Source of the DNA: Pristiophorus japonicus
Taxonomy: Eukaryota
Assembly: GCF_044704955.1 (NCBI RefSeq)
Contig: NW_027251843.1
Span: 310,001-374,000 of the forward strand
DNA: 64,000 nucleotides
Direction of reading: 5' to 3'
This document shows, piece after piece, positions 1 to 45,037 of this stretch. The position numbers and the translations under genes were made by a program. How positions within the stretch are numbered: position 1 is the first letter of the stretch; each line of letters opens with the position of its first letter. The notes below the pieces were generated by a model. That model saw only the letters and a program-made list of their open reading frames with translations, was not told the DNA's origin and made no database searches.

Positions 1-62
1 GCAAAAAACGGGCGTCCAGGTCGGGACTGCGCCGTTCTAGGCGCGGCTCGAAACTTGGGCCC
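1..62. mobile_element. End of a GC-rich non-autonomous DNA transposon (Harbinger-like MITE), truncating retroviral copy A
   Basis: GC-rich stretch ending aaacttgggccc, resembling the inverted form of the gggcccaaatt start at ~24738; retroviral RNase H homology stops here. Confidence 0.3.
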
Positions 63-63
63 A

Positions 64-631
64 TAGTGCCCGAGCAAATCGTGTACGGGGTAGGAAATTT
101 CTCGGGGTGTGTGGCCTCATATACCACCGCGGACAGTTCAGCATGCTGGGCGCTCATGGTGCTGGGGAGTTTAATAGCCAGTGCAATGTTCGCCTCTGGG
201 TCATAGACTCCGCATCTGTGAGTCATTCACCAGCAGTTACTGTGCTCGAACCGTCCACATAGATTTCACGGCCCATGGGGTGTATCCCGACCCGAAAACC
301 TACGTTGACTTCCCATACCCCTTCTACAGAGCACAGGTTGGCTGTCCCCGGGTAGACCATGTTAGCTGCGAGCCTTGGCTCGCAGAGGCCTTTTACCCTT
401 AGGTCCATCTGGGAGAGGAGTAGGGTCCAGCGAGCGATGCGAGCACTGCTCACTGTCCCATCCTTAATCCTCCCATCCAGGAGCATCTGGGAAGGTGTAT
501 GGTGGGTGAGGAGTGTGAGAGGGGGCCCTCCTGTGAAGATTAAAGATCTCTTCACAGCCCAGTGAGTGGCCAGTAAGTGCCTCTCACAGTTGGAATACCC
601 TGTTTCCACATCGGTGAGTATCCTGGAGGAG
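64..631 (-). pseudogene. pol: Copy A pol fragment: end of first RNase H/tether plus second RNase H
   Basis: ORF 223..696 SRILTDVETGYSNCERHLLATHWAVK...RIARWTLLL...IYVDGSS; shifted frame gives SAQHAELSAV...YTICS; homologous to 10700-11290 on plus. Confidence 0.8.
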
Positions 632-636
632 TAAAC

Positions 637-903
637 TTTAAAGTCCTGACCCCACAGTACAGATTTAAACGAGGCACAGGCTGTAGTCAAGGTCACTCTG
701 GACCTGCACCTTTATTTCACAGCTCTCGAGTGCCACACTTGCCTGAGACCTCCTTTATATACCTGTGTGGAACAGGTATGCAGTGACTCCTGCAAGTGCA
801 CCCCTGGTGGTAAAGTATGCTTGTGGTTACAGGTCATATCTAGTTACAGTCATGGAGAGCATGGTAAGATACAGTTATATACAGTAGTGTGTGATACATG
901 ACA
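637..903 (-). repeat. 3' LTR of Gypsy element
   Basis: Direct repeat of 5152-5418, about 19 differences in 267 bp by eye. Confidence 0.95.
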
Positions 904-930
904 TCACCCTCCCCCAAGGTCTTATTGTCT

Positions 931-3900
931 TTATAGATTCAGTCTCTCAGGTGGTCTACGCTCTCTCGTGGAGTGTCTTAGTTGTGGTTCAGTTGTTTGC
1001 CTTGGTGCCTGTTTTTCGTTCAGTGTGATTGCTGGTATCTCGCCTGGGCTGTCTGTTTTGTTCAGTATGTTAGCTGGTATCTCGCCTGGGCTGTCTGTTG
1101 AGACTGCCCTTTCCTCAGGTTGTTCCCTCTGTCTGTCCACCAGGCATGGTGTGAGTTCCACATTGTCGTCTGCTTCTGGTTCTGCAGTGTTGTTGGTGAA
1201 TCTACTTTTTACTTGGTCTACATGCCTCCGGCATGTTTGGCCATTGTCCATTTGTACAACCAGTAGCCTGTTTCCTTCCTTGCCTGTTACTGTCTCTGCA
1301 AGCCATTTGCGACCCCTGCCATAGTTGAGCACAATCACTTTGTCCCCTATCTCATTCCACCTTCCCCTCGAATTTCGGTCATGGTACTCAGTTAGCTTCC
1401 GGCGCTTTGCCTCACAATTTCATGCATGTCTGGGAGGATTAACGAGAGCCTAGTCTTTAAGATCTGTTTCATCAATAGTTGCGCGGGGGGAACCCCAGTC
1501 AACGAATGCAGATGAGATCTGTATGCCAGCAGCAGTCGCGACAGGCGGCTCTGCAGCGTGGGACCTTGGATTCTGAGCAGGCCTTGTTTAACGATTTGCA
1601 CTGCTCGCTCCTCTTGGCCATTGGAGGCCGGCTTGAACGGTGCCGTCTTAACGTGATTTATGCCGTGGTCAACTATAAAATCTTGAAATTCTGCACTGGT
1701 GAAGCACGGACCATTATCACTGACCAATATGTCAGGAATGCCGTGCATTGCAAACATGGTTCTGAGGCTCTCCACAGTGGTGGAGGTGGTGCTCGAGTTT
1801 AAAATGGTGCACTCGATCCACTTTGAAAATGCATCGACGACTACGAGGAACATTTTGCCCATGAATGGGCCCGCATAGTCTCCATGCACCCGCGACCGCG
1901 GTTTGGTGGGCCAGGGCCAGGGGCTCAGGGGGGCCTCCCTGGGGGTATTACTGAGTTGGGCACAAATGGTGCACCGCCGGATGCAGAGCTCCAAGTCCGC
2001 GTCAATGCCAGGCCACCAGTCGTGGGATCTGGCTTCAGCCTTCATAAGGATGATCCCCGGGTGCTCGCGGTGGAGCTCCCGGACAAACGCCTCTCTGCCT
2101 CGCAAGGACATAACTACTCGGCTGCCCCACATTAGGCAGTCTGCCTGCAGTGATAGTTCATGCATGCGCCTATGGAAAGGTTTGATCTCCTCGGGGCAGG
2201 CATCGCGGGCCTCTGCCCAGTCACCAATTAAAACACATCTTTTTACTAAGGATAACGTGGGTCGCTGGTCGTCCAGGCTCTGATTTGAAGAGCTGTCATG
2301 TGCGAACCTGTGGATTCAAAGGCATTGATTGCCATGACCATCTCACAGTCCTGTTCGTCGGCCCCTTCCGTGGTCGCCAGGGGTATCCTGCTAAGCGCAT
2401 CGGCACAGTTGTCTGTGCCTGGTCTGTGCCTTATTGTGTAGTCGGAAGATGCCAGCATGAGTACCCACCGCTGAATGCGTGCCGAGGCTTTGGCGTTTAT
2501 TGCCTTGCACTTGGATAGCAGGACGTGAGGGGTTTGTGGTCAGTTTCTAACGCAAACTTGGCCCCGAAAAGGTATTAGTGCATTTTTTTGACACCGTACA
2601 CGCACGCGAGCGCCTCCTTCTCAACCATACCGTGCCCGCGCTCTGCCCGTGAAAGTGACCTGGAGGCATAAGCAATGGATTGTAATTTACCCACTTCATT
2701 GACATGCTGTAAAGCGCACCTGACCCTGTACGCTGATGCATCACATGTAAGAACTAACTTTTTACCTGGGTCAAAAAAGGCTAAAACACTGCTGGAACAC
2801 AGAAGGTTGCGTGCCTTATTGAAGGCGTGTTCCTGGGCGTCCCCCCAAAACCCATTCCACCCCTTCCTGAGTAGCACGTGGAGAGGCTCCAGCAGCGTGC
2901 TCAAGTTCTGCATAAAGTTCCCAAAGTAATTGAGTATCCCAAGAAAGGCGCGCAGTTCCAAAACATTCCGGGGCCTGGGTGCCAGATGAATTGCTTCGGT
3001 TTTGGATTCTGTTGGGCGGATTCCATCAGCGGCAATCCTTCTGCCCAAAAATTCAACCTCGGGTGCGAGAAACAGACACTTGGATTTCTTAACTCTTAGG
3101 CCTACCCGATCCGATCGACTTAGTACTTCCTCCAAATTGCGGACATGGGAGTCGGTGTCCCTGCCCGTGATAAGTATGTCGTCTTGAAACACAACCGTCC
3201 CCGGGATGGACTTGAGCAGACTCACCATGTTGCTCTGGAATATAGCAGCTGCCGACCTGATGCCGAATGGGCATCGATTGTACATAAAAAGGCCTTGATG
3301 TGTTTTGATGGTGGTGAGTAGCTTAGAATCTTCGATCAGTTCTTGCATCATATATGCAGCTGTGAGATCTAGTTTCGAGAAAAGCTTTCCTCCAGCCATT
3401 GTGGCAAGTAGGTCCTCCACTCTGGGCAGCGGGTATTGGTCCTGTAGGGAGACTTTGTTTATGGTAGACTTGTAATCCCCACAGATTCGTACGAATCCAT
3501 CAGGCTTCATGACGGGGACGATGGGACTTGCCCAGTCGCTAAATTCCACGGGTGAGATAATGCCTTCCCGCAGAAGCCGGTCCAGTTCGTGTACAATCTT
3601 TTCCCTCATCACATAAGGCACAGCTCTAGCCTTGTGATGGACCGGTCTAGCATCCTGTGTGATGTAGATTTTAACTTTAGCCCCTTTGAAGGTGCCCACA
3701 CCTGGCTGAAAGAGATGTTCAAAATGACTGAGAACTGTTGAGCAGGAGGTCTGTTCCTCTGACGACATGGCGTGAACATCATCCCATTTCCAATTTAATT
3801 TTGCCAGCCAGCTTCTCCCCAACAGTGCTGGGAGATCTCCGGGAACAATCCACAGGAAAGTTGGTTCACCGTCCCTTTGTGTGTGACTGAGAGCATGGCG

Positions 3901-5116
3901 CTGCCAAGGACTGGGATGATTTCTTTGGTATAGGTCCTTAGTTTAGTGTCGATCCTTGTGAGTTTTGGTCTGTTGCTTTTGTGCGGCCACAGCTGTTCAA
4001 AGTGTTGGACGCTCATGAGAAATTGACTAGCTCCCGTGTCCAGTTCCATGTTGACGGGTATCCCGTTGAGTAGGACCCTCATCATTATTGGAGGCATCTT
4101 GTTGTAAGAACAGTGGACATTGATCGTGTTGACCCGCTGTACCCCAGCGACCCGGGCACTGTCCCCACCGTCTTTTGGTCCGCGTTCCGACCCTTCCGAT
4201 TCATATACCAGACGAGCTGCTGTTTTTCTGCACATGCGAGCCAGATGCCCTGTATAGTTGCAGTTTCTGCAAACAGCATGCTGAAATCGACACCCCCTTG
4301 TTGAGTGCCTTCCCCCACATCTCCAGCACAGACCACTTCCATTGTTTCCGAAGGATGAGCTGCGTCTGGCTGATCTATTTTGAGCTTCTCTCAGTTTGTA
4401 GTTGATTGCTCGCCTTGTGGGTTGATAAGGTGTGCACGGCCGTTCATGTGGCCCTTGATGGCTTCTGGCGCCACTGCCTACTGTTGAAGGCCTGTTCTTC
4501 TGCCTTTGTCTGTGTGTGGGGGTAGCGGCTTGTTTCACGCTGTGAACCCCTTGTTCCGATGTTTTGTTAGTTGTCGTACCCGCAGTATAAATCAACCTCA
4601 TTTCTTCTTCTCCTACCAAGAATGTCTGTGCGACCAGTGCTGCTGCCTCTAGGGTCACGTTCTTGGTCTCTATAAGCTTTCGGAATATGCCTGCATGGCC
4701 TATTTCTTCAATAAAAAAGTCTCTCAGTACTTCTCTCCTTAGTTCATCGGAGAACTCACATAAACTAGCTAGCCTCCGAAGTTCCGCCACAAAGGCGGGT
4801 ATGCTCTGGCCCACACAGCATTTGTAGTTGCAGAACCTGTGTCTGGCTATGTGTAGGCTGCTCGCTGGCTTCAGGTGGTCTCTTACCAGTGTGCTCAACT
4901 CCTCAAATGACTTGCTTGCTGGTTTCTCGGGTGCCAGCAGGTCCTTCATTAAGGCGCATGTTTTCGAGCCACAGCTAGTCAAGAGATGGGCTCTTCACTT
5001 GTCTGCCTTATCGTCGCCCAACCAGTCATTGGTTAAAAGCTTTGCTGGAGCCTTTCTATAAAGTCCTCCCAATTGTCTCCAGCATTGTATTTCTCATCTG
5101 AGCCGTTGGTAGCCAT
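931..5116 (-). pseudogene. Gypsy gag-pol (two zinc knuckles, LDTGAS protease, RT FQDD, RNase H, integrase), frameshifted
   Basis: ORFs 3795..4982 (CWRC...CRNCNYTGHLARMC, ELDTGAS), 2575..3822 (RT), 1392..2165 (HHCC, VSDNG integrase), 931..1338. Confidence 0.92.
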
Positions 5117-5151
5117 TCTGTGGATTCTGTGATCCCATAACTCGTCGCCAC

Positions 5152-5418
5152 TGTAAAGTCTTGACCCTGCAGTACAGACTTACATGAGGCACATGCTGAA
5201 GTCAAGGTTACTCTGGACCTGCACCTTTATTTCACAGCTCTCGAATGCCACACTTGCCTGAGACCTCCTTTATATACCTGTGTGGAACAGGTATGCAGTG
5301 TCTCCTGAAAGTGTACCCCTGGTGGTCAAGTATGCTTGTGGTTACAGGTTATATCTAGTTACAGTCATGTACAGCATGGTAAGATACAGTTATATACAGT
5401 AGTGTGAGATACATGACA
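5152..5418 (-). repeat. 5' LTR of Gypsy element
   Basis: TGTCATG...TTTACA on minus, AATAAA inside, followed by the PBS. Confidence 0.95.
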
Positions 5419-5423
5419 TAAAC

Positions 5424-6950
5424 CACCAGTCTCAGCTGGCCGTGCCGTTCCTGCAACAGCACTGTGCTCAGACTGTCCCTGCTGGCTGCCATCTCCAGGA
5501 AAAACTCTCTCCCCTGATCAATCGATCCTAGGGCCGGTGTGGTCTGCAGCCTTTCTTTGAGTTGTTTAAATGCTGCCTTGCAACCCTCGTCCCAATCCCA
5601 CTCCACTCCCTTGTGTAGGAGCTGGAGCAGAGGGGCTGCTGTGGCAGCATAATCCTCAATGAAGTCTCTGCAGTATCCTGTTAGCCCCAGAAAAGATCTC
5701 ACTCCCGTTACTGTGTTGGGGGTTGGTAATTCCTGTACTGCCTCCTTTCTAGCCTTGTCAATGGCTCTTTCCCCAGCACGCACCGTCAGTCCTAGGAATT
5801 TGACTTCCTTCTGGCCGATCTGCGCCTTCTTGGGGTTAACTTTAAAACCTGCCTCCCTAAGTAGCTCCAGCAGCTCAGCCAGCAGTGGGCCAAACTCCTC
5901 ACCCTCACCGGTGAATAGGAGCAGGTCGTCCACATACTAGACCAGCTGCCGGGGTCTGCTAAAACCCTTCAAGCAGTTAGCCATGCATTGATGAAAAATG
6001 CTGGGGCTGTTATGAAAACCCTGGGGCAGGCAGTTCCAAGTGTACTGTTGGCCTTTAAATGTAAAAGCGAACTTGTACTGGTCCTCCCTTCGCAAGGGAA
6101 TGGACCAAACCCGTTGGAAACATCCAGCACCGTGAAGGTGGTTGCGGATGCTGGAATACTTCCAATGAGGTCGGCAACAGCTGCGACCGTGGGTACACAG
6201 GTGGGGATATTACGGTTGAGTACCCGGTAATCCACCGTGGCTCTCAGGAATTGTCCGGTTTCTTAACCGGACACAGTGGAGAGTTCACATTGGTGGCTAT
6301 CGGTCTCAATAGCCTCTGTTTAACCAAAGAACTCATGGCCATTTCCATGTCTGCCTCTGCTTCCCTGGGGAAATTGTACTGCTTTTGTGGTCGGGTCATG
6401 GGGTCCCCACTCACACTGACCTCGACTCTGTTTAATCTCCGACAATCATGTTTGTGAGTGGCAAACGTGACGAGGTGTACTCGCACAACAGCCTGGTACT
6501 CCACTGGTGTGTTACTGACCAGTAGTTCAAGGTTGTAACCCTCCTTTGACTTCATTGTACACAGGGTCCCCTTTCCCTGTTTCTCTGGGATGACTGCTAC
6601 CTCACTTTCTTTACTGTTACAGGCTGCCCCCCACAGACAATGGTTTCTTAAATCCACGAGAACCCGGTGACCTATAATAAAGTAGGCACCAGGATTCCTT
6701 TTCCCTCCTGCTCCCACTTCATCAGGACACACGTCCACTTAGTGTGCAGTGTCACTAATTGAATGGACAGTGGGATGGAGAATGAGCCAGCCTGTTCATT
6801 GCCCATGAATCCCATTAGGCTGTACGGGGTCCCGTTTGATAGAGGTGAGGCTGTGGGGTCATCTGCATAGACTGTGGTGCATGATGCTCCAGTGTCCAGC
6901 AAATAAGTCCCCTTTACTCTCTCCACCTCCATCTCGACATACGATTGCAT
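5424..6950 (-). pseudogene. pol: Copy A protease and reverse transcriptase
   Basis: ORFs 6672..6950 (LLDTGAS), 6244..6738 (KQYNFP, NSPLCPVKKPD), 5969..6235, 5355..5933; in-frame TAG just before YVDD. Confidence 0.88.
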
Positions 6951-6993
6951 CGTACACTAGGGGACACAGGTAGACAGGCTGTGCTGGTTTTCG

Positions 6994-8794
6994 TCATAAA
7001 TCTGGGTGAGATGGGGCAGATGGTATCACTGCACCGGTGGCTGTGGCTACCTTCCCCGGACCCATTAGTGCGGTTCGGAGTACAGCCATCACGGTCTCAA
7101 ATGTTTGGGTAGAGACCGACGGCTCGGTCTTTTGGGCTGGGACTGTGGGATTCTTTCCTACCCTGTCCTTCCAGGGATTCCAACAGTCCTTCCTCCAATG
7201 CCCATTCTTCCCACACCCAAAGCAGTTACACTTGGTTTCGGAAGGGTTACCCCCTTCCTGGTGCCACTCTTTCTTTCCCTGACTGGGTTTTAACTCATGT
7301 ACCTTTCCCTTGGGTGGGTGCTCTTCCCCCCTGCAGTTCCGATATGCCATGGTCAGTTGCCTGATCACTGTTTCCTCGGTGGCGTGGGGTCCCTCGGGTC
7401 AAACCAAAGCTCTGCTCTGGCTTTGATCCGGGCCAGGCTATTCGCCACTATGCTCCGGAGCCATTGTGCCCGTTCGCCCGGTGTAAGGTTTGCCCGGTCG
7501 AGAGCCATACTGCAGGCTCGCTGATACACAGGCCACAGCCTGTCAGCGAAAGCCTGAGGGGTATCTCCCACAAGCTGCACTGTCCTCTCCACTCTGGAGA
7601 AGGGACTTCCCTCATTTAGACCCATGGTCTCCAGAACTTCATCCCGGACATCATCATATGTACCCCTGCCCTTTCTGCACGCCGCCAAAAGGGACTGGTA
7701 CAGCTTGCTGTCCAGGGAGAAAAGGAGCAGTTTTACCTGCTCTGAGTCATCACATCCGCTAATCTCGGCTGCCTGTTCCACTTCCATGAAGCGGACGGAG
7801 GGGCCTCCCTTATGTGTAAGCTTACTCAGGTGGCTTACCATAGCCCTCAACTGTTGGGTAGTGTGGGGAACCACGAATTGGCTCTCAAGAACCCCCGGTG
7901 CTCCACCCACAGGCGCGCTGAACTTTTGCTGCCGGACCGGACACATTGGTCCAGGCTTTCAGTTCTGGCTCACCCTTCTCTCCCTGCTGCCAAACTGAGT
8001 TAAACCCCGGCACCACAGGTGGTGGTGGTCCGTACTCCCTGCCTGCCTGAGCAATTGTCCCTTGTCCCTCCTTCCTGCTGCCCAACCGAGTTGTTCCCCG
8101 GCGCCACAGGGGGTGACTGAACAGTTTTCTCCTCCTCTTCCAGGTCTGCCCGGGTCGTACCCGGACTTATGAGGCACACCATGCCTCTTGCCCTGGACAG
8201 AGCGCGGTTTAAACTTTCAATTTGCTGCTGGCAGGGGCTGTGATCTCCCAACTCAAACCCCTTAGTGCTGGTTACTCTGTAGGCTGCCTGGATGTCTTTG
8301 ACGCTCTCCTCCTGCTCTTTCATTTGTCTATTAAGGCGAGTGTTCTCTTCTTGCAGTATCAATTCATTTTTCTTAGCCTCGGTGACCTGACACTGCACAT
8401 AATCCAACCTATTCCTGAACTTCTTCCCTGTGTAAAGCCTTTCCTCGTTGTGCTCATGTAACTCTCTCATTAACCTTTCCCCTATGATTGTTTGTGCACT
8501 AGACTGTTCCTCTGCCTCTTTCAGTTCAGCCATTAGTTTCTCTACTGTGGAATCTAAGAGTTGGACCTGTTTATGCAGACATACTAGCCAAATTGCCTTT
8601 TCCACTGCCTTTTTGTGAGTTTTTCCCTCTGTCCACTGGACTGCAGCGTCCCCTGGATGCTCAGCACGCAACAGATCGCGTACTCACTTCTTTGTTACAT
8701 TCACTCTTTTGACCACATAGGAAGCAATCCTCTCTTCTATTTTACTTCTTTTCTCACAACCAAAGTCTGTCTCCTCACATCACTTTTGCCACAT
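6994..8794 (-). pseudogene. gag: Copy A gag: N-terminal coiled coil, capsid with major homology region, single CCHC knuckle
   Basis: ORFs 8000..8671 (heptad-rich), 7365..7946 (QLVGDTPQAFADRL), 6994..7368 (CFGCGKNGHWRKDC); start codon uncertain. Confidence 0.82.
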
Positions 8795-8811
8795 TCCCTT
8801 CGTGGTCGCCA
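8795..8811 (-). other. Primer binding site, tRNA-Arg(TCG)
   Basis: Plus strand TCCCTTCGTGGTCGCCA matches, from memory, the 3' 17 nt of vertebrate tRNA-Arg(TCG) including CCA; lies between LTR end and gag. Confidence 0.85.
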
Positions 8812-8812
8812 T

Positions 8813-9410
8813 TATGGCTGGTGTTTTGGTCAGGTTTCTCTGACTCCTTGTTGTTTTCGAGGCACCCTACACCCTGGATTCTAGACTGTGGACTGATTTG
8901 GGGGTTGTGAGAAACTGAGACAGAGTTGGGTAAGATGCAAAACTGGTTTTATTGTGTTCAAACAGAGTAAAAGGCACGTTTTTAATAATCACAGTAATCA
9001 GGTACAAATAGGGAGAAATGGCAACTCAAATGATCTATATTTGGGAAGAACACATAACACATATAACAGATTAAAAGAACACAGTCCTCTCACCTCCCAA
9101 AATACTTATGCACTAACCCTGGAAGGGGAAAACACACACGAACATCAACAGGTAGGAACAGTAAGAAAAACCCAACCTCCCAGACCCACTATCTAGCTAG
9201 GTTAGAACTCTGGGGTTTCAGGGACCATGCTCACCAATTCCCTTTTGACAGTTCCCACTCCGGGGTTCGCCTCAGTTGTCCTGATCCTGTTCCAAACTCC
9301 AGGGTTTGCCTTAGTTGTCCTGATCCTGTTCCAAACTCCAGGGTTTGCCTTAGTTGTCCGGGTTCGGTAGTCTGTACCCCGGACCTCATTGGGGATTTCA
9401 ACCTACGGTT
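8813..9410 (-). repeat. Partial 5' LTR (R/U5 side) of copy A
   Basis: AATAAA on minus at 8948-8953; blocks of similarity to solo LTRs 13232-14690 and 14732-16245; internal 39-bp tandem repeat at 9252-9359. Confidence 0.75.
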
Positions 9411-9544
9411 TCCATGAGGTTGGCTCCCTTTTGCCTTTTTCCTTTTACAACTTAGATCTCCACTTGAAAAATCCAAAGCTCATTTTTAACAGTGCAAGAG
9501 GAGCTTTTCTTTACTTTTCAGGGAGAGGGACTCATGGGAATTTT

Positions 9545-12032
9545 TGGGAACCCTTCAATGATGAATCCGAAAAGGAGTTATGATTTAGAAGGATTAGTCG
9601 ATAATATTCTGGCCCAGTATCAAGGTATGTACGGCAGAATATGGATGCGTTTGCAATTCACAAGCACGATTGCGGGAGAGTATCTAGGGTAGAGGTGAAG
9701 ATAGATGGGGATTCGATGACACGACCCCAGAAACAGTATAATTTTCCCCGGGAAGTAGAAAGGGATTTGGAAACTGCTATAAATTCCCTGGTGGATCAAG
9801 GTGTGTTGAGGACCACAGCCACACATGTAAACTCACCCCTATGGCCAGTAAAGAAGCCCGATAACTCATGGAGGGCCACGGTAGATGACCGAATCCTGAA
9901 TAAAAATATTCCAGCCTGTGCGCCCACGGTAGCAGTGGTAGCGGATTTGATCGGGAGTATCCCTGCGGCCACAACAACTTTCACAGTGCTGGACATTTCA
10001 AATGGGTTTTGGTCCATTCCCCTGAGACGGGAGGACCAGTATAAATCTACCTTTACCTTTAAAGGTCAGCAGTATACGTGGACATGTCTTCCACAAGGGT
10101 TTCACAACAGTCCCTCGATCTTCCACCAAAGTATGGCCGAGGCATTAAACAGTTTTAGTCAGCCAGATCGGTTGGTCCAATATGTGGACGACCTGTTGTT
10201 ATTCTCCGAAAGTGCGGAGGACCACGGGCCATTATTGAGTGAATTACTGCATTTGTTGAAAGAAGCAGGTTTTAAAGTAAATCCCCAGAAAGCTCAAATA
10301 GGCAAAGAGGAGGTGCAGTTTCCAGGTTTGACCATTGGGGCAGGAGAAAGGGCCATAGATGGAGCTAAGAGAAAGACAGTCCAGGAACTACCTGTTCCTA
10401 AGGACGTGTCTGGAGTAAGGTCTTTCCTGGGAATAACGGGTTACTGCAGGGAATTCATAGAGGGATATATAACCATGGCAGCTCCTTTGTTGAGGCTTCT
10501 TAGGAAAGGAGTAGAGTGGGAATGGAGTGAGAGTTGTCAGGAAACTTTCATTTGGTTAAAAGCGGTGTTACAGACAGCACCAGCATCGGGAGCAGTAAAT
10601 GGGGACCAGGACTTTAGTCTGGAGGTAGCAGCGACTGGGGACAGTTTGAGTGCAGTGTTACTCCAGGAGCGACACAGCAAGCTGAGACCGGTGGCCTACG
10701 TCTCCCGAGTTCTCACCGAAGTAGAAAAGAGTTTTTTCAAATTGCAAACGACATCTATTTGCAACTTTTTGAGCAGTAAAGCATTTTCGGTCGCTCACAG
10801 GGTTAGCTACAGTAACTTTACTGACCTGTCACACCACGACACAATTGTTACTGGATGGTAGAATGAAAGATGGGACAGTGAGCAGTAACAGGATTGCCCG
10901 CTGGACATTGTTGCTGACTCAGTTAGACCTGAAGGTCGAGAGGCCAGGAGAACCAAAGCTAGCCCCGAACTTGGTTTATCCGGGGGCAGCTCATGTGTGT
11001 TCAGTGGAAGGAGTGTGGGATGTAGATGTGAGATTCTGAGCAGGAGAACACCCGACAGGTAGGGACATCTATGTAGATGGGTCTAGTTCAGTAATAAACA
11101 GAGAGAGAAAGACAAGCTGTGGGATTTACAATCCAGAGGCAGTGATAGAGAAAGCCATAAAATCCCCAACACTTTGAGTATGCAGCAGACCGAGCTAGCA
11201 GCGGTAGCGTATGTAGTCACACACCCGAACGAATTCCCAACTCCCTATACGATATGTTCAGACTCCATGTTCATTTCTAACTGCTGTACAGAGTATTTAG
11301 CCATATTGGCGAGGCGAGGGTTTAAGTCCTCTGACGGAAATCCGTTGGTGTTGACTCCATTGTTAAAAGTCATTTTGGACGTCACGGGTTGGGACCAGAA
11401 GGATTACTACATCCAAAAGGTCAAAGCACAATCTAAGACAGAGCCCAAGTGGGAAGGGAATGAGAAAGCAGACACACTGGCTAAAACAGGGGCAGGAGAA
11501 GGGACACCTTGGGACCCATATCACTGTGGACAGATCACGGCTGTAACAGGCAGAGAGAGGCCCAAAGAAGTCCCATTGTCGCCTGATTTAAAACAGGCTC
11601 AGCTACAGGATGCAGACCTTAGAGCAGCGATTAGGGACAAGATAGATGGGAAGCATGTTGCGGGACCTTTGGGAGCTGCAGACATAGAAGTAAAGCAAGG
11701 AATGTTGTTCAAGGGAGATAGTTGGATCGTGCCAGGACAGTGCAGGGAAGAATTCTTGCAGCTGGTGCATGTGGGTCCAGGAGCTGGACATCCAGGGCCA
11801 GAAACAATGTGGAATAAAGTAGAAGCTGTGGGATGGTGGCCCGGGCTTAGAAGTGATGTCAGGGATTATTGCCAGAATTGTCTGGTATGTGCCACAAACA
11901 ATCCACACCCCCACCGAGGAAGGCTCCGTTGGGACACACGAGGAGTGTAGAGGGGTCATGGCAGTCTATACAGATAGATTTCATTGGGCCACTGTCCACC
12001 TCAGGCAGATGCAATAAATATTCCTTGGTGTT
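9545..12032 (+). pseudogene. pol: Copy B pol: RT, RNase H-like tether, second RNase H, integrase N-terminus
   Basis: ORF 9641..10861 (WTCLPQGFHNSPSIFHQ, YVDD); IYVDGSS at ~11067; ORF 11174..11950 (ELAAV, ICSDS, GNEKADTLAK, H-H-C-C zinc finger); QIDFIGPL then cut by Gypsy LTR. Confidence 0.9.
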
Positions 12033-13231
12033 TGTTATTATTAATGCTTGGAGGTCACCAGACACCAGAGGGCGCCGCGGTCAGAGTTGTACACATGTGG
12101 CAGGTATGCTTGGTCACCTGTATATAAGCTGTGTGTCTTTGTCACGCAGGCACTCTTGGGCTGGAATAAAGACGGATCAGGTTGCACCTGAATGAGTTTA
12201 CAGTAACCAGACTCTTGAGTCATTACAATTGGCGACGAGGTAATTTAAGAACCTTCGCATGCACAATGGGCACTGTTGGAATTTCGGAGAGATTTGTGGA
12301 GGGCGAGGAGTGGGCAGATTTTGGCGACCGCCTGGATCAGTATTTTGTGGCCAACCGCATGGAGGCAGAGGCCTCCACAGTTAAGCACAGGGCAGTTCTC
12401 CTCACCCTTTGTGGTCCGAAAATCTTCTCTCATGAAGAATCTTCTCTCGCCTGTACGTCAGGCGGAAAAAGGGTACGAGGAATTGTGTACGTTGGTGGGT
12501 GACCATCTGAAGCCAAAAGAGGGGATCATCATATCACGCTACCGTTTGTACACGCATGTTCGTGTTGAGGGCCAGGTCGTGTCGGGATTTGTCGCCAACC
12601 TGCGATGTCTTGCTGAGCCGTGTAAGTTTGGGAACTTGCTGGAAGACATGCTGCATGATGTCTTCATGATAGTTATCTGCCATGATGTGATCCTCAGGAA
12701 GCTGTTAGCTGCAGAGACGCTGGATTTGAAAAAGGCCATCGCGACTGCCCAGGCATGCATGACAACGGATGATAATCTGAGGCAGATATCATCGAAGAGT
12801 GGGAGTTCCACGGCAAGTACTGTAAACAAGATGGCGTCGCCTTTGGGCAGAGCTGCTTACGCAAAATGTGCTGCTGCTCAGAGACCGGCAACAGGTTCGA
12901 ACCAGATTTTACCCTGTTGGCGTTGTGGGGGCAATCATTGGCCTCATCAGTGTCGGTTTAGACAATACTGATGCAATGGATGTTCGAAAGTGGGGCATTT
13001 TCACAGGATGTGTCCACAACGGTGCAAGCGTGGTGCGGCTCACTACGTGGTTGATGAGGACCAGTTCAGTGATGGCCCGGATACACAACCTGATGTGGAA
13101 GTGAATGGACTGTATTCTGTGCAAGAGATAGATGATAGTCATTAACGTGAAGCTGAATAGCATGCCTGTATCAATGGAGCTGGACACGGGTGTGAGCCAG
13201 TCGATAATGAGCCAATGGACATTCGACAAGC

Positions 13232-14690
13232 TGTAAGGGGTGGTTTGCAGGGGGTCAGCTATCCCTTCTGACCTTATATGAGCGGTTCCGAATCGCTCCC
13301 ACACCCTTGGTTCTCGACACTGGAATTATGAAGGGACTGTGACAGACTTGGACAGACAATCGGTTTCAAGGTAGGAAGCAGGTATGACTTTATTGTGTTG
13401 AAAAAAGAAGTAAAAGGCACACCTTTAATAACACACACAGACCAATACACACTGAAGGGTACAACACATTGAATAAAATGTCAAATTACAGCCTGTGGGG
13501 AAAAGAATACAGCTTAAACTCTAAATGGGGTAAAGAGGAGAACGCAGATACATTTACACAAGTTATCCCAGCCTCCCCACTCCCAATTCCCCTAACTAAC
13601 TAAGTTATAGCTCTGAGGGTTCAGGGGCCATGCTCACCAATCCCTTTAGACAGTTGCTGGTGAATCGCGGTTTCGGGGTTCGCTACACTTGGCCTTCTAG
13701 GCGAGCCGTACCCCGGACGGAGGAGAGGACTTCGGACTGCGTAGTCTTCAGTTGGGGTGCATCCGTTGATGCGGTAAGTTGCGTTTTGGATGTATGGGGT
13801 AAGTACCCACTTTCTTTGGTTAGGAATAGTTTTAGTTAGTCCCTTTTGGTAATTTCTCCCCCGTTGGGTCGTTCAGAAGTAGATTGTAGAGCGGTTGTCA
13901 ATTTGCTTGCTGACAACCTTCCGTTTCGTGGGCCTCGTGCTCGGTCAGTTCCTGATCAGTTCTGGTAGTTTCCTTCACTATTCCATTTCTTCACTGTAGA
14001 GCAAGCAGGCTGCTTGTTTGTGTTTGTGTTCCAGTCTGTGCGAGTTCCAGTCTGTGTTCTGCTTCTCTCCTGTGTTCTGCTAGTTTCTGTGTTCTGCTAG
14101 ACTTTCTTTGTAAAACTGGGGGATAAATATATACCCCAAAAAAAGGCTCCGTTATCTCCCATCAAATCTCTTGGGCTCTGTTTAAACTGTTCTGTCCATT
14201 GATTTTCAAATGTCTCCTTTATCAGCAGTAACTCGATTAGGGTGTGAGAATGTGCTATCACTGGTTTTGCATTGTTTTAGGATTGTCCAGTTTCTTGACC
14301 ATGATTTCCATTGTGCTTGATTGGGTAATTCGATTATCTCTTAGAGGGTGAACAGCCTGGGGTCCTTAATGCACGAATTTGGCCCCACCTCCTGTATTTG
14401 GTAACTCTTTCTCGCAGCCAAAATGTTGTAGAATATTAAAATTGATATGCTCCTTCCCATAGATGTTTAGGGGATCTCAAGCTTCTGTAATTTAGGTTCA
14501 TTTTGAATTCCCTTTCCTATGAGTCCAAACACTGGGTGGGGTGGGGGGGGTCTGCATGAATGCATTCCCTTTTATCCCCCGCAGGTTCCGTCTGCCCCTT
14601 TAAACTCATTTTAAAAGCCCAGAAAGGGATTCTTCTCCTCTGTAGGGGAAAGGTACCTGGAATCTTTGCGAGATTTTGGTAAATTCTACA
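13232..14690 (-). mobile_element. Solo LTR (1459 bp), related to the copy A LTR
   Basis: TG...CA ends, 4-bp TSD AAGC (13228-13231, 14691-14694), minus AATAAA 13389-13394, TATA-like ~14125-14133. Confidence 0.88.
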
Positions 14691-14731
14691 AAGCTGTGGG
14701 ACACTAAGGCTATGAAACCGAAGCTGAGTCT

Positions 14732-16245
14732 TGTAGCAGGTGCAAAATTCACAACAACCCTCCCCCCCCCGCCCCCGAGTGTTTGGGCTCATTCGAAAGG
14801 AAAGTTAATTTGGGACTATCTACCGAAAGTTTGGAACCCTAAAGTGCTTATTGAAGAAACTACGAACTTTAATAGAATTTTGGATTTTAAAAGACAAATT
14901 CAAGGCTGTAGGTGGACCTAAAGAACTAACAGGAGACAGTCTAACTAAGTGGAGCTACCTGGGTGTGAGGACTAAGTTAACCTGTCTGGAGGGATGAGTA
15001 TTCAAAAATCCTTCCCCCACAAGAAACATTAATGTCACAAAATCACCCAGAAGTAGCTACCGATCAACATGGGTCTGGACAACCATTTCAGCATATACAT
15101 CACAAAGAGACTCAATCCAGCCAGTATGCGAAAGAATAAGCACAAAAGGACATTGCAATTAACAAACTAATATTTCCATCAGGAAACAGTTTTCGAACAT
15201 CAACTCACCCAAAACATATCAACTTTTAATGAGCCCACCAAAATATTACAAAGGTGAACCAAGCCCGCCAAAATTACACAAAGGATTTTAAACAGGTTTT
15301 GTGCCAAGATTAGAAACACTGAAATCATATAACTGGCCCCTGTTTTCAACAGAGGGTATGACACACTTTGCTATACAACCGAGACCAAGTTGTTGTCATC
15401 AAGACAAAGAGAGAAACCAAAGTGACAGTTGTAAACTGACTTCTCCAGCCTTGAAGTCCTGAAGTCCTGAAGGCAGGAAGAACATCACCATCGCGGCAGC
15501 AACCAACCACAGTCAACGTGGTATCAACGGAAAACCACCGCGATCGACCAAACTCGAACAAAACTCCAACGAGGAAAAACTGAAGAATTGAAAAAGTTTC
15601 CACTCTACAATCTAATCCTGACCTACCAACGGGTAAAACATTACCTAAAAGACTGTAGAAACCTATTTCTAATGAAGAAAACCAGGTACTTACCACATAG
15701 ATCCAAAACACACCTTACCGCATCAGCGGACTCAACCCAACTGAAGATTGCACAGCTAGAAGTCTTCTCTGTCATTCGGGGTATGGCAAGCAGAACCTAC
15801 CACATCCAGTGAACCCCAAAACTGTGATCTACCGTTAACTGTCCAAAAGGATTGGTCAGCATAGTCCCTGCCTGCCCTGGAGTCCAACCTAGCTAGGCTT
15901 AGGTATTGGGAGGTGGGAGGTATCATTTTACTGCAACCACCTTTGAATGTGTAGTGTATGGTACTTTATTAGATTGTTTATAAGTACCTTGTACTTTTCC
16001 TTGTATTGTCCTTTATTAGAGTGATTGTAAGTTTGGCCTTGTATTTTCTTACTAGAGTAATAAGCTTGTATAACCTTGACTGTAATAAAACCAAAGTTTC
16101 TTTTTGCATCAAACCAGTGTCCTTTGCACTTTTGACACCCTCCCCAAATAAATCCAGAGTACAGAACCCAAGGGGGTGGGAGCGATTCGAACTGCTCAAG
16201 TTGGTCAGAAGGGAGCCTGACCCCCTCATAGAGAACACCTTTACA
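14732..16245 (+). mobile_element. Solo LTR (1514 bp), related family, opposite orientation
   Basis: TGTAG...TTACA, TSD GTCT/GTCC (14728-14731, 16246-16249), AATAAA 16084-16089; its 3' 100 bp resembles the reverse complement of 13232-13340. Confidence 0.88.
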
Positions 16246-17934
16246 GTCCAGTCAATGCCAGATTGCATACTTACACTAAGGAACTCATACCGGTGCTCGG
16301 CAATGCAGCAATCGAGATGTCATATGACATTGTGGTACACGAGCTACCATTATGGATCACCCCAGGTAATGGTCCAACTGTTCGGCAGGAATTGGCTCGA
16401 GAAAATCAAGCTGAACTGGAATGTTGTCAAGATGTTACCCTTGGTGGATGATACTTCATGTGCTCAAGTATTGAAAAAATGTCCTTCTTTGTTTGAACTG
16501 GGCATTGGTAATTTTATGGGAACCAAGGTGCAGATTCACCTGGACTCCAATGCAAGGCCTGTCTATCACAAAGCTTGGTCTGTTCCATACACGTTGAGGG
16601 AGAAGGTTGAAATTGAGCTTGACAGACTCCAGCATGAAGGGATCATATCACTGGTCAAGTTTAACGAGTGGGCTAGTCCCATTGTTCCTGTGTTGAAGTG
16701 TGATGGCACTGTCAGGATTTTTGGAGACGACAAGGTTGCAATTAACCGGTTTTTGAAACAGGATCAGTATCCATTACCGATGGCTGATGACCTGTTCGCC
16801 ATGTTAGCTGGTGGAAAGTCGTTCACAAAACTGGAACTGACATCGGCCTATATGACCCAGGTGCTTGTCAATACTTTGAAGAAACTCACCTGCATGAACA
16901 CCCATAAAGGACTGTTCATCTACCACAGGTGTCCTTTTGGGATTCGTTTGGCTGCAGCCATATTTCAGAGGAGTATGGAGAGTTTACTGAAGTCCATTCC
17001 TAGAGCTGTCATGTTTCAAGATGACATTCTGGTCACAAGTCACGACACTGCTGAACATCTGAACAATCTTGAAGAAGTCCTACAGCATCTCGACAAAGTG
17101 GGACTCAGGCTGAAACGATCGAAGTGTGTATTCATGGCACCTGAAGTCGAATTTCTCGGGAGGAAGATTACTGCTAGTAGCATTAGGCCCACTGATTTGA
17201 AAACCAAGGCCATCAAAAATGCACCCAGGCCTCAAAATGTGACGGAGCTGCATTCATTCCTTGGGCTACTCAACTACTTTGGCAATTTCTTACCCAGATT
17301 GATCACTTTACTCGGGCCACCGCATGTGTTACTAAGAAAAGGCGACAACTGGGCCTAGGGTGTGTCTCAAGATAGAGCCTTTGAGAAAGCCAAAAATCTG
17401 CTATGTTCAAACAAGTTGCTTGTTCATTATGATCTGTGTGAGCCTCTTGTATTGGTCTGTGATGCTTCATCACATGGGGTTGGCAGTGTACTCCAACAAA
17501 CAAATGAATCGGGCAAACTACAACCTGTTGCATATGCTTTGAGAAGTCTGTCTAAAGCGATAGAAGGCTTACAGTATGGTAGAGAAAGAAGCTTTGGCCT
17601 GTGTGTATGATGTTAAAAAAATGCACCAGTACCTGTTTAGTCTTCGTTTTAAACTAGAAACGGATCACAAGCCACTCATTTCATTGTTTGCGGAAAACAA
17701 AGGTATTAATACCAATGCATCACCCGCATTCAAAGGTGGGCGCTGACATTGTCTGCCTATGATTTTGTCATCCATCATAGACCTGACACTGAGAATTGTG
17801 CCGCTGCACTGAGTCGTCTGCCTTTGCCCACACCTGAGGTGGAGATGCCTCAACCTGCAGATCTACTGTTAGTAATGGATGCTTTTGAGAGTGAAGGGAC
17901 TCTGCTCAACAAGTCAGGATCTGGACCAGCCATC

Positions 17935-18447
17935 TGGACAGGGAGACTAATGAGGACCTCGACCCATATCCTAGCACCAGTCCTGACCGAAACGCAGGTT
18001 AAAGAGGTCACACGGGACAGGTTTGTCAGATCTGTATGGTACTCTGAAGGGGCTGCATTGGGAAGAAGCTCACAATATGGGCAGGCAGCACCAGCAGGAT
18101 AAACTGCTGTGGAACCCCGGGTTACACAGGAATGGAGGGTAGGGGATCAGGTAATGGTCAGGAATTATACCAGAATAGGGGCATTTGAACCACTGTACAA
18201 AGGACCATATAGCATTGTAGACAAGGCAAGCCCTATGGTGTACACGATCCAGTTGCCAAAACATATCAAATGGTTCCATATAAACCAGTGTAAGCTGTAC
18301 AACCCCGGAGAGAAAAGTAAAAAGCGGGCGAAGGCCCCAGGAACAATAATGAGTTTGATCAGTGTAAGCCTCCCACCAATACTGTGGGATGATGAGGATG
18401 GAGAAGTAAGGGACGGAGCAGTAAGGTGGAGTGGTCAGGTACTGTGA
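17935..18447 (+). pseudogene. pol: Retroviral integrase C-terminus (GPY/F module), probably copy B
   Basis: TGRLMRTSTHILAPVL...WRVGDQVMVRNY...EPLYKGPYSIV...WFHINQCKLY. Confidence 0.85.
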
Positions 18448-18635
18448 CCTAGCGTGCCCTGGACACCTCCTCCATCTCCACCCCCGAGCCTCTGTAAGCC
18501 CAAGCATTGGGATAAAAGGAGAGGGAAGCAGTGATTGTAAAAAGGAGTTATGTACATTTGTGAATAACTGAAGGAGGACCTGTGAGGGGGAGGCCCCCCA
18601 GAGCAAAGGTATTTCTTTCATTTTTGTCTTTATAG

Positions 18636-20025
18636 GAGCGAATCGAGCCAAGGGTACGAGAGGAGGTGGACATTGTGGATAGGCCTGTGGATGGCCATTA
18701 TTATTAAAGGATTGGGAGATCGGGGAGACACCGAGACATTCCTTACACACGGGTGTATGGGAGGAACCAGCCCCACTGTAACTCAAGGGGGAGCCATACG
18801 GAGTAACAAGGGCACAAACACCTCTGCTCACACTGGGAGCTGGCCAGGGTGGTTAGGGTCAAATTCGACCAAGTACTCCAGACAAACCGAAGGTAAACTT
18901 GGGGAGGTGTCAGTGTCCTGCCCCAAGCTAAACATCACGACCAGGAATGTACGGGTGAGAGAGGGGAGACGAGTTTGTCTGGAATGTAAAGGGATTACCC
19001 CCATGGGAGGGTGGTGGTGGTTACAGAAAACAGGCAGGGGAAAAGTTAATGCATCGACAGAATGGGAGAAACTGGGTAATAACTCAAACAGGCGGAGCAC
19101 AGGAACAAGAAAAGGGGAAAAATTGTGTTGGGAAAAGTGGTGGAAGGCGGAACAAGGGATTTATGTCTGTGTGGTTGGATCTAGCCACAAGTGCAGGGGA
19201 GGTGTGGCGATTGTTTTTAAATGACAATGGCAGGATTCTGGGTCAGGAATGAATTGGACGCAGGGTTTATTTTCTTGTGTGACCTTGAACCCGCCAAAAA
19301 CAGTCAATGCAACCGAGCTGATCGCGAGCAGATTAAAACCTCTCCCTAAAATGCTGGAGATTCCAATCCAAGAAATTCCATGTCCTGTCCTAAAACCCGG
19401 GCCTAAGAACGGGCTGGTGTTAATCCCAACAGGGAAAATGTTGTATCATACTGTGTATTATGAAGTAGTGTCGGTTATTCTAAATTTTAACAGAGTTACA
19501 AATACCCCGGTGGTGTCCGCCAGAACCAGAAAAGTTACATAAGCGTTTGTTAAAAGAAATATTTAAGCAATTCTATCAGAAGAATTATGGGGACAAAAGT
19601 TAGGTGGAAGCAGACAAACCAATAAGCAACAGCCAGACGGGTTGGGGGAGGCAAAAAAGGGGACTGATGAATGATGTGGGTACGGCATTTAATACAGGTA
19701 CATCGCGCAGTTGAAAGTCCAAGTAAACACCTTCAGGGACTAGTTAAAGAAGTTACTGGAGGAGGGTAGTGACATAGAGGGTAACGAATTACAGGAGGAC
19801 CAGGCAATGACAATCCATTTGAAGGAGATGATAGCTGAGGTGGAGACACACACTCAGACCATCAATGCTTTAATCAAGGAGGGTAGAAACGCGTCAGATC
19901 AAGCTGCTCAGAATGACGGGTGTGTCATGTACTGAGCTTAGTTGCTAAATTAAGGATGCAGTAATTTAGAGGATTTAAAACAAGGCCACGTACCGTCGTG
20001 GGTCAGTGACAAGCATCGAAAGGCT
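18636..20025 (+). pseudogene. env: env: signal peptide, Ig-like domain, class I fusion protein ectodomain (furin site, fusion peptide, heptad repeat); TM portion missing
   Basis: ORFs 18673..19224 and 19249..19542 share a frame across one TGA; +1 slip at 19485-19488; RQKR at 19649-19660 then GLMNDVGTAFNTGTS; many N-glycosylation sequons; splice acceptor at 18612-18635. Confidence 0.78.
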
Positions 20026-20029
20026 TTGA

Positions 20030-20686
20030 GTGTCTATAACAACAGGTTGATACAATCAAGCAATGGAGCCCATGGATTAATTGGCCAGAGGGGAAAATCA
20101 GTCCCTCTGGAGATTCCAAGCCTGTGAAAACCCAGGACATCAAAGGATCCCACAAGGCGTGCATTCTTGGATAACGGGGCACAAAAGATAAGGAGTTATC
20201 TTTTGCCCTGTCGATTCTGTGTGTGAATTGTGGCCATCCGACTAGATCCAGACCCATCATCACAGCCATCGAGACTCAACCAGATGCATTAACTGAAAGG
20301 CAGCCCAGCAGGAGATGTGTAGAATTGAATGGATATTGAATGGATATATCTGTAAGAGCTGAGAACAAGAGCTCAGAGAGAGGAACAACAGGTCGAAGAA
20401 ACACCTCAGACCAGCAGGTCAATGAACAACGGCCACGAAGCAGCAGCGGGGACCCAACACCTTCCCTCGCTCTAAGAGCCGACAATCGACAACAGCAACA
20501 GCAGGCTGGATGGGTGATTGTATGTCTTCGGTCAATCTCTAAGAAGTCTTGTTCCGTACTTTTTAGGGTTTTTTTGTGTAATAAACAAACAGTTGGATTT
20601 TATTCTAAACTTTGCTTTATGTGTGGTACTTCCTGTAATTCCCGAGGTCTATGAATCAGAGTAGAGTGGGAAACCAACACCCTACA
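20030..20686 (+). repeat. 5'-truncated LTR, possibly the 3' LTR of copy B; same family as 48201-49015
   Basis: Long near-identical match to the reverse complement of ~48201-48840; AATAAA at ~20580; ends CCTACA. Confidence 0.8.
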
Positions 20687-22604
20687 CCACATGAGGTCAT
20701 CACCGGGAGGGTTATGTGCACCCAACCCATGTGTTGGTGCCAGTCCTCACAGAAGCTCAGGTCAGGGAGGTAAACCGGGACAGGTTGGTCCAGAATCTGT
20801 TTGAGGTTTTAAAACAGATTCACTGGCAGGCAGCCAGTAACCTGGGGAGCCAGCACCGGGAAACATTGGTTGTTGCTCGAGTCCCGGAGAAGCCACGAGT
20901 GGAAGGTGGGAGACCAGGTAATGTTCAGGAACTGTGCCCGAGTGGGGGCATTCGAGCCACTGTACATGGGGCCTTATAACATCGTAGATAAGGCCAGCCC
21001 CATGGTATATGCAGTCAGACTCCCGAACCGCACAAAATGCTGTCACATCAACCAGTGTAAGTTGTTTAACCCCAAGGGGGTGACGACAAAGGCAAAGAGA
21101 AACCAGGGCACAATAATGAGCCTGGTGGACGCGGGTCTTCCTCCCATGGTGTAGGACGATGATGATGACCCAGATGGCGGGACAGTAAGGAGAAACAGTC
21201 GGATACCACGGCTTAGGGCGCTGTGGACACCTCCTTACTCACCGGCCGCGAGCCGCAAGATTTTAACTGGGGGCACTCGATAACGCAGAACGAACGGAAT
21301 ATATATGTAAATAACGAAAGCCCAACCTGTGGAGGGAAAAACCGCTCACAAAATGGTTGTGCTGTATCTGTCTTAATCAGGAAATCAGAAGAAACGGGAG
21401 CCCGGGTGTAATTGATCAGTTATGGACCCACAATGCACCTCCCGCAGCAGAAGATGACGGAATTCCAGATATTTCCGGTTTTGGTGACAAAATATCATCA
21501 GGGGGATTGTAGCACCAGCTTTCTGGCCATTTCTATCAACAATATTTTAAATCCTTAAATCCAAATCCCCAAGAAAGATCTGTACTGTTTGGCGAGCTTG
21601 TCGGGGTGACACTGAGGTGCATTCATATTCAACCGGATATTTCACACTGACAGGCTGGGTGGCAGGGAACCCAGGCCCATTGATGTCATCACCATCTAAA
21701 GTGATTCCTGGGAACAATATCCCGAGAGGTAACTCAGAGACACTGTGCCTTTGCATTATTAAAGCACAGTCACCACTCAGTCCCAACCCAAACTGGTGCA
21801 AGGCAGGAAATGGCCGGCCCATTGTCTTCCAGGAGATAAGCCGGTTAAGCAAGATCGGTTTGTGATCGAAACCCATTACGGGCTAATGGGGGCCATCAAC
21901 TCAGGAAACGACAGACATCCAGTAATCAGCACCCATTGTCTCTCCAGACGCAAGGCCTGGGAGCGGGAAAACAAAACATCATTTTTCACAAAGATTTCAA
22001 AGACTACGAGCCATTCCAGGCCACAGGGTGGGGAGTCCAGACAGATCACTGGAGTCAATCCATCGGTCAGTATTGGTGGGAGGAAAGGTGATGGGTTTTG
22101 GGGATATAAGGAGCCACTTTGCAACAAGCTCCAGCTCAGGAAGAAGAAAGCTCCGGAAAAAGCCCAGGAAAAAGCTCAGGAAAAATCGCAGGAAAAAGTC
22201 CAGGAGGGAGACGTTCAGGAAGAAGCTGCAAGCAAGACAACGGGCAATCAGGGTGAGCATATTGCCTGCGCCTACACATCCACAAGACCACTTAGCTGTG
22301 TGAGGGGGTGATTGTAAGTCCCAACCAAACCCAAGGGGTTTAGTGCTGGGGGGATCCTGTGTTAGTTTATTTCACGGCAGTGTTCATTTATTAAGCCGTG
22401 GTAACTTAGCACGGCACGGCTTATTGGACAAGCCAGGGTTGTACTGTTTTGCACTGTTTATGAGTGGTGTTGTTAATATTATTAAACACTAATACGGTTC
22501 AGCCCAAAAAATGTGTGTCCGAGTCTGATCTGTCCATATAATCCTATCGTCCAGAACTTGTAGTAGGAGGTGCGTTTTTGGTACGCCCGAGAAAACCACC
22601 TATA
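20687..22604 (+). mobile_element. Retrovirus-like copy C: integrase C-terminus, ~1.1 kb unassigned region, PPT and short putative 3' LTR
   Basis: ORFs 20716..20979 and 20870..21154 are paralogous to 17935-18447; purine tract GAGGGGGTGAT then TGTAAG at 22313; ATTAAA 22481-22486; ends aaaccacctata like the other LTR ends. Confidence 0.65.
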
Positions 22605-23150
22605 GGCAACCTCTCAGTACTGCCCCTCCGACAGTGCAGCGCTCCCTCAGTACTGCCCCTCGGACAGTGCAGCACTCCCTCAGTACTGCCCGTCTGACAG
22701 TGTAGCATTCCCTCAATACTGCCCCTCTGACAATGCGGCACTCCCTCGGTACTGCCCTTCCAACAGTGCGGCAATCCCTCAGTACTGCCCCTCCGACAGT
22801 GTGGCACTCCCTCAGTACTGCCCCTCCGACAGTGCAGCACTCCCTCAGTACTGCCCCTCTGACAGTTCAGCACTCCCTCAGTATTGCCCGTCTGACAGTG
22901 TAGCATTCACTCAATACTGCCAATCTGACAATGTGGCACTCCCTCAGTACTGCACCTCTGACAGTGCAGCACTCCCTCAGTATTGCCCCTCTAACATTGC
23001 AGCACTCCCTCAGTATTGCACCTGTGACAGTGCAGCACTCCCTCAGTATTGCCCCTCTGACAAAGTGGCACTCCCTCAGTACTGCACCTCTGACAGTGCA
23101 GCACCCCCTCAGTACTGCCCCTCTGACAGTGCAGCACTCCCTCAGGACTG
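22605..23150. repeat. 33-bp minisatellite derived from SINE body
   Basis: ~16 copies of ctccctcagtactgcccctccgacagtgcagca; the unit also appears once inside SINEs at ~25365-25395 and ~37470-37500. Confidence 0.9.
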
Positions 23151-44888: not shown

Positions 44889-45037
44889 NNNNNNNNNNNN
44901 NNNNNNNNNNNNNNNNNNNNNNNNNNNNNNNNNNNNNNNNNNNNNNNNNNNNNNNNNNNNNNNNNNNNNNNNNNNNNNNNNNNNNNNNNNNNNNNNNNNN
45001 NNNNNNNNNNNNNNNNNNNNNNNNNNNNNNNNNNNNN
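44889..45037. other. Assembly gap (149 N) followed by a CT-rich microsatellite to ~45215
   Basis: N run in the sequence. Confidence 1.

Follow-up and report, generated by a model that had tools for sequence, protein, structure and literature searches.

Does the endogenous retrovirus (ERV) family found in a 64,000-nucleotide stretch of the Pristiophorus japonicus genome belong to the lokiretroviruses, or elsewhere among the retroviruses? The stretch (the window) comprises positions 310001–374000 of contig NW_027251843.1 in a 5.9-Gb genome and contains three related, nested and degraded copies of the family, denoted A, B and C. A first-pass annotation had recognized these three diverged copies and had read them as lokiretroviruses or a new neighbouring lineage. 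The copies were borne out by our analysis; the lokiretrovirus identity was not. We consider it probable that the copies are dead, nested members of a multi-subfamily ERV with a reverse transcriptase (RT) in the canonical retroviruses, likely related to snakehead retrovirus (SnRV; clade Huo, class III), and with an envelope protein (Env) that is likely of paramyxovirus F type and has a probable immunoglobulin (Ig)-like head. The SnRV-like label is based on the RT trees, on approximately unbiased (AU) tests, and on an organization shared with SnRV in Gag, in-frame stop and Env type. As in canonical Retroviridae, the RT falls within that clade, the order is long terminal repeat (LTR)–gag–pro–pol–env–LTR, and there is a tRNA primer binding site (PBS).

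The RT reference set included six or seven lokiretroviruses (one from Labeo rohita), SnRV, the walleye epsilonretrovirus, Gypsy elements and three foamy-like copies from the same genome. References were labelled by source names and by motif comparison with Dataset S3 of PMC7947760, and the SnRV genome by its RT motifs against that dataset and its length of 10,688 nt. All RT trees agreed in showing the shark rows as one clade (support 100/100) nested in the canonical retroviruses (100/98) and separate from the lokiretroviruses (98/97). Grouping of the shark and lokiretrovirus rows was rejected in two AU tests (p = 0.044 and 0.006). Moreover, the shark RT has the canonical LPQG where 24 lokiretrovirus rows of Dataset S3 read PFG (PMC7947760), and its protease and RT are separated by a short spacer of 137 residues, compared to 240–560 in three lokiretrovirus Pols. 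Named homologues of the shark Env were found in cartilaginous fish only (P. japonicus, up to 92% identity; Scyliorhinus torazame, 66%; Rhinoraja longicauda, 53%), yet S. torazame was screened as lokiretrovirus-negative, and the Fig. S1 table of PMC7947760 lists no lokiretroviruses in any of six chondrichthyan genomes, in line with the first-pass annotation. When the P. japonicus genome was queried with a lamprey-type lokiretrovirus, identity did not exceed 36% among the 53 matches scored in a stricter first look, and the top three loci were the shark family itself. A true lokiretrovirus, the first in a cartilaginous fish, would account for the F-type Env, which resembles the published lokiretrovirus Env after the cleavage site (by eye only), and for integrase and tether scores closer to lokiretroviruses than to SnRV, as well as a whole-Pol BLAST score of 565 bits to a lokiretrovirus versus 506 to SnRV. 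However, it is already largely refuted by the RT, and we regard it as highly improbable.

The grouping of the shark rows with SnRV was not rejected by the AU test (p = 0.148), but the two were not sisters in the free trees, and several results caution against labelling the shark family simply as SnRV-like. In the mixture-model RT tree, the SnRV, foamy-like and gamma/epsilon rows formed a clade (95/91) that left the shark and frog rows outside, and the integrase tree likewise contained a clade excluding them (98/99). The base of the canonical clade was poorly resolved in the RT trees, and the integrase, tether and whole-Pol scores given above point the same way. These results would fit a separate, early-branching canonical lineage of shark, frog and coelacanth elements, outside the SnRV clade proper, that had kept a loki-like integrase, a lightly decayed tether and an F-type Env from a common ancestor. 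We find this unlikely: the same RT node had support of 75/93 under LG+G4, the trees were built without class II, ERV-L, Odin and named foamy viruses, the foamy branch was long (1.5), and Han (2015) reported CmiERV lineage I of Callorhinchus milii (elephant shark), which has matching motifs, as SnRV-like (PMC4422223). The idea of a neighbouring lineage survives in a weaker form, as an early-branching SnRV-like lineage with a loki-like type of Env and integrase.

The first-pass annotation had also considered ordinary Metaviridae or an already catalogued shark ERV family. The RT did not fall in the Gypsy clades, and a tether plus RNase H is present instead of a single active RNase H, which rules out the former; the latter holds in part, as CmiERV-I, a shark ERV of SnRV-like type whose Pol motifs are the same, is in print. 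A foamy-like ERV was rejected on the basis of the separate RT branch, the lack of a PF03408 hit in Env and the presence of a CCHC motif, which foamy viruses are not known to have. Decayed ERVs of foamy-virus-like type do occur in the same genome (loci L043–L049 and L056–L063), with 21 env matches to PF03408 and RTs that resemble coelacanth foamy virus motifs. The Repbase classes ERV3 and ERV4, which have a 5-bp target site duplication (TSD), no zinc finger and no GPY/F motif (PMC4299795, Table 1), were ruled out by the 4-bp TSD, CCHC and GPY of the shark family. Odin retrotransposons, whose RT is sister to that of lokiretroviruses, combine a dual RNase H with the lack of an env; the shark family has an env.

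The Gag protein has a coiled-coil region, a motif resembling the major homology region (QLVGDTPQAFADR) and one CCHC. In Pol, the RT motifs LPQGFHNSP and YVDD are followed by a tether without the first catalytic Asp, a complete RNase H, and an integrase tail with a GPY motif. All of this had been described correctly from the sequence, as had the retroviral nature of the element, the 17-nt PBS, which is identical to the host tRNA-Arg(TCG) gene plus CCA, and the ≈1.5 kb LTRs with 4-bp TSDs, seen for two solo LTRs and in all three young proviruses that were read end to end. The LTRs have TG...CA ends. The tether and second RNase H also occur in SnRV and are therefore not diagnostic of a lokiretrovirus. 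A second form of the PBS, present in three of six proviruses read, matches tRNA-Arg(CCG); near-identical young copies differ in this respect, a case of primer switching inside one subfamily. In three young proviruses and two A-like copies, pol continues in the reading frame of gag across TGA-CTAG. Because this is a known leaky-stop context, Gag-Pol may be made by stop read-through. No separate smc-like gene was found as its own frame in one young provirus (L001), where the coiled coil belongs to Gag. The nearest Pols are those of frog and coelacanth elements, at 40–45% identity. One frog Pol gene model (P0006) closes, at residues 1190–1331, with a stretch resembling a signal peptide and with an Ig domain, where env would start.

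The natural open Env frame is 777 residues long and, by eye, starts with a hydrophobic leader; RQRR lies at residue 327 and one transmembrane helix near residue 734, and there are eight sequons. Neither a CX6CC nor an immunosuppressive motif was found in it, ruling out a gamma-type Env. In the atlas, residues 240–760 best matched a PF00523 (paramyxovirus F) cluster (0.93; 206 of 256 features), while a Pfam search of Env gave no PF00523 hit. With a low-confidence predicted model of Env, the top match of Foldseek in the PDB was the fusion subunit of foamy Env (E = 6e-3), and the others were mostly antibody light chains. The shark and SnRV Envs could be aligned collinearly with 103 of 374 residues identical (z = 10.9, matched by none of 500 shuffles; z = 0.5 for the control). 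Two other shark subfamilies gave z = 8.3 and 5.8 against SnRV Env, and two shorter or decayed stretches gave 1.7 and 2.0; profile methods found no significant match between shark and SnRV Env. Env is thus likely a paramyxovirus-F-type fusion protein, consistent with the first-pass comparison to lokiretroviruses, whose Env resembles Mononegavirales fusion proteins.

Residues 89–171 of Env display an Ig pattern (Cys, Trp, D-x-G-x-Y-x-C) with an Ig_3 match below the cut-off (E = 2e-4) and profile matches to VEGFR3 (0.005) and CRTAM (0.056). The corresponding part of the copy B env, at about 18922–19200, matched Ig_3 with E = 0.018. At the equivalent place, the N-terminus of SnRV Env has a weak V-set match (E = 0.084) and aligns with the shark Ig-like region with z = 4.3. 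The tip of Env is therefore probably an Ig-like domain; no host donor gene was identified for it. Between subfamilies, the ratio of nonsynonymous to synonymous changes (dN/dS) was 0.14–0.25 for the Ig-like domain and 0.09–0.10 for the F part in the two of five comparisons that were unsaturated; a young env pair gave 0.58 and 0.49. The env gene has been under purifying selection between subfamilies, which suggests that the family spread by reinfection. Env would presumably be cleaved by furin, with the F-like part fusing membranes and the Ig-like head perhaps binding a host receptor, by analogy with the IgV-type domains of gamma Env. A literature search found no paper describing an F-type, Ig-headed Env for SnRV-like viruses.

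Could a canonical RT have been combined with the env and integrase of a lokiretrovirus? Swapping of env does occur in this group: CmiERV-I has a gamma-type Env on matching Pol motifs (by eye), implying an env swap. However, the shark integrase is not nested in the lokiretrovirus clade (100/100), lying outside it in the same polytomy (CGIN1 was not in the set), and, as SnRV shares this Env type, a recent lokiretrovirus donor need not be invoked. We give such a recombinant very little credence and retain the SnRV-like assignment.

Members of the family elsewhere in the genome are better preserved. Among the best 108 of 187,737 candidate RT matches, which were scored, 30 lie in an open frame of 1,423 codons, and the 91 env matches scored are 93–100% alike. 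In three young proviruses, the two LTRs differ from each other at 3 of 1303, 5 of 1312 and 7 of 1307 sites (99.5–99.8% alike), corresponding to an age of ≈5–12 million years at the shark rate of 2.2e-10 assumed in PMC4422223, or tenfold less at a mammalian rate. Each has a broken env. Two A-like copies have no env and have LTR pairs that are 97.8% and 95.6% alike. Thus, the genome holds a young subfamily as well as env-less derivatives. After loss of env, spread may have continued by intracellular retrotransposition. Two database gene models (P0002 and P0003) join env pieces to Niban-like and zinc-finger genes; these fusions may reflect either errors of annotation or chimeric transcripts.

The features of the window are listed in Table 1. 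With time the window copies decayed, took insertions of Gypsy elements and solo LTRs, and were copied further within a segmental-duplication array. The window is part of this array, and the copy B RT occurs at 100% identity in three other places and at 90–95% in many places on C8:143–148 Mb. The array is large, spanning C8:143–149 Mb, C1231 (the window contig), C53 and C113, and its duplicates vary in carrying Gypsy 2, which is absent from one (L014). Inside the window, env is present only in copy B. The env of copy A lies to the left (locus L013), where tblastn matches cover pol 765–1267 and env 9–340 and 674–770, consistent with integrase, an internally deleted env and an LTR; copy C gave no tblastn match to env. 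The env reported in the first-pass annotation therefore holds for copies A and B only. The 3′ LTR of copy B terminates on the copy C integrase. The RT of Gypsy 1 falls with the Metaviridae outgroup, and its 5-bp TSD was verified; that of Gypsy 2, also claimed, is unreadable since the right end is lost.

Table 1. Features of the ERV family and associated elements in the window.
Feature	Position	Strand	Remarks
Copy A, overall	62–9557	−	Split by Gypsy 1 at 637–5418; continues left of window
Copy A pol: tether end, start of second RNase H	62–636	−	tblastn, pol 528–719, 76–80%
Gypsy element 1, inside copy A tether	637–5418	−	LTR pair 92%; 5-bp TSD TAAAC
Copy A pol: protease, RT, tether start	5419–6984	−	Frameshifted; tblastn
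Copy A gag: coiled coil, MHR-like motif, one CCHC	7000–8760 (start approximate)	−	Frameshifted
PBS, 17 nt, tRNA-Arg(TCG)	8795–8811	−	
Copy A 5′ LTR remnant	8815–9557	−	Partial matches: LTR of A-like provirus, locus L013
Copy B, overall	9560–20684	+	Split by Gypsy 2
Copy B pol, 5′-truncated: RT, tether, RNase H, integrase N-terminus	9560–12051	+	
Gypsy element 2, inside copy B integrase	12050–17930 (ends approximate)	+	Right LTR missing
Solo LTR of ERV family in Gypsy 2 protease	13232–14690	−	83–94% to A-like provirus LTR; TSD AAGC/AAGC
Second, more diverged solo LTR	14732–16245	+	TSD GTCT/GTCC
Copy B integrase tail with GPY motif	17932–18336	+	
Copy B env, codons 7–467 of 777	18688–20049	+	Nine stops; 42% to open natural env
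Copy B 3′ LTR, 5′ part deleted together with env end	20047–20684	+	89% to solo LTR 48201–49015
Copy C, overall	20685–~21400	+	
Copy C: integrase tail and region before env	20685–21400 (end approximate)	+	
Solo LTR, B subfamily	48201–49015	−	TSD ACCT/ACTT

The two solo LTRs in Gypsy 2, 1459 and 1514 bp long and each with a 4-bp TSD, are related, lie in opposite orientation with 41 bp between them, and sit in one Gypsy protease gene. Together with another nested subfamily copy (B in C; L006 region), they suggest a nesting preference. Among the best 40 of 571 candidates scored, 21400–22450 matched only segmental-duplication copies; 21506–22450 is repeated along with the array and has a Lys/Glu-rich open stretch (21763–22311) that is not env. 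Positions 22605–23153, 33010–34039 and 44889–45037 hold tandem minisatellites and a single run of N, and fragments resembling long interspersed nuclear elements are numerous across 24–64 kb. Just left of the window (L013:6–2930) is a different ERV, 33% identical to the Pol of the shark family, with an RT that groups with fish elements nearer the SnRV and foamy-like rows.

The lokiretrovirus host-range claim thus falls, and, since SnRV-like ERVs of cartilaginous fish were already known, the surprise is limited. The SnRV link of the Ig-plus-F Env and the rejection of the lokiretrovirus label were both tested, and an SnRV-like ERV with an F-type Env is relevant to Env origins. As a caution, having a tether, a second RNase H and an F-like Env does not make an element a lokiretrovirus. 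Wang and Han, seeing no overall similarity, left open four explanations of how lokiretrovirus versus retroviral Env arose in their account. The pairing of a canonical RT with an F-type Env, which the exogenous SnRV shares, speaks for an Env of this type in the common ancestor. The young family, and a virus that has already been propagated in fish cells, make this idea testable. A broader scheme is possible but doubtful: F-type Env might be the ancestral retroviral Env, surviving in lokiretroviruses, foamy viruses, SnRV and the early-branching shark lineage, with an Ig head captured in the shark ERV and SnRV and a gamma-type Env replacing it later, as in CmiERV-I. The shark–frog–coelacanth group would then be a link between lokiretroviruses and other retroviruses, with a young, high-copy shark member.

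SnRV and the shark ERV share a coiled-coil Gag, one CCHC, an in-frame gag–pol stop, a tether plus RNase H, a TGGCGA-type PBS (which in SnRV we take to be for tRNA-Arg), and a non-gamma Env that is collinear between the two and opens with a weak Ig-like domain. Their Pols are only 31–32% identical, the SnRV Env is longer (about 1130 residues versus 777), and the gag–pol junction is TAG in SnRV and TGA-CTAG in the shark ERV. Unlike SnRV, the shark ERV has its own signal peptide within the env frame, and there is no ATG frame of at least 60 residues behind env in any of the three young copies. CmiERV-I, likewise in a cartilaginous fish, shares HKHDCGR, LDISNGFWSIP, LPQGFHNSP, the FHLEVA tether start, CERHLLA and YIDGSS in its printed sequence, compared by eye only. 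It differs in its gamma-type Env (LQNR motif, CX6CC), its shorter LTR and its PBS, presumably for tRNA-Ser. The SnRV-related clade Huo was reported from all major vertebrate lineages (Xu et al., PMC6001957). Lokiretroviruses, as described in PMC7947760, share the dual RNase H, what is likely an F-like Env with an RXK/RR site, and a similar integrase and tether; they differ in RT position and motif, in the smc-like gene of some members, of which no separate copy was seen in the shark ERV, and in that no Ig-like domain is described for their Env in that account. Foamy Env reportedly has a core in common with paramyxovirus F (PMC11468914), but the foamy-like Env stretches of the same genome have no significant similarity to the shark Env (z at most 2.0), and the foamy RT is on a separate branch. 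Finally, Ig-type receptor-binding domains have been reported on gamma-type Envs of amniotes, including the SIRP-like Env-Dbi (bioRxiv 10.1101/2024.03.17.585361). These have in common with the shark Env an N-terminal Ig-like module on a retroviral surface subunit, whereas the shark module sits on an F-type Env.

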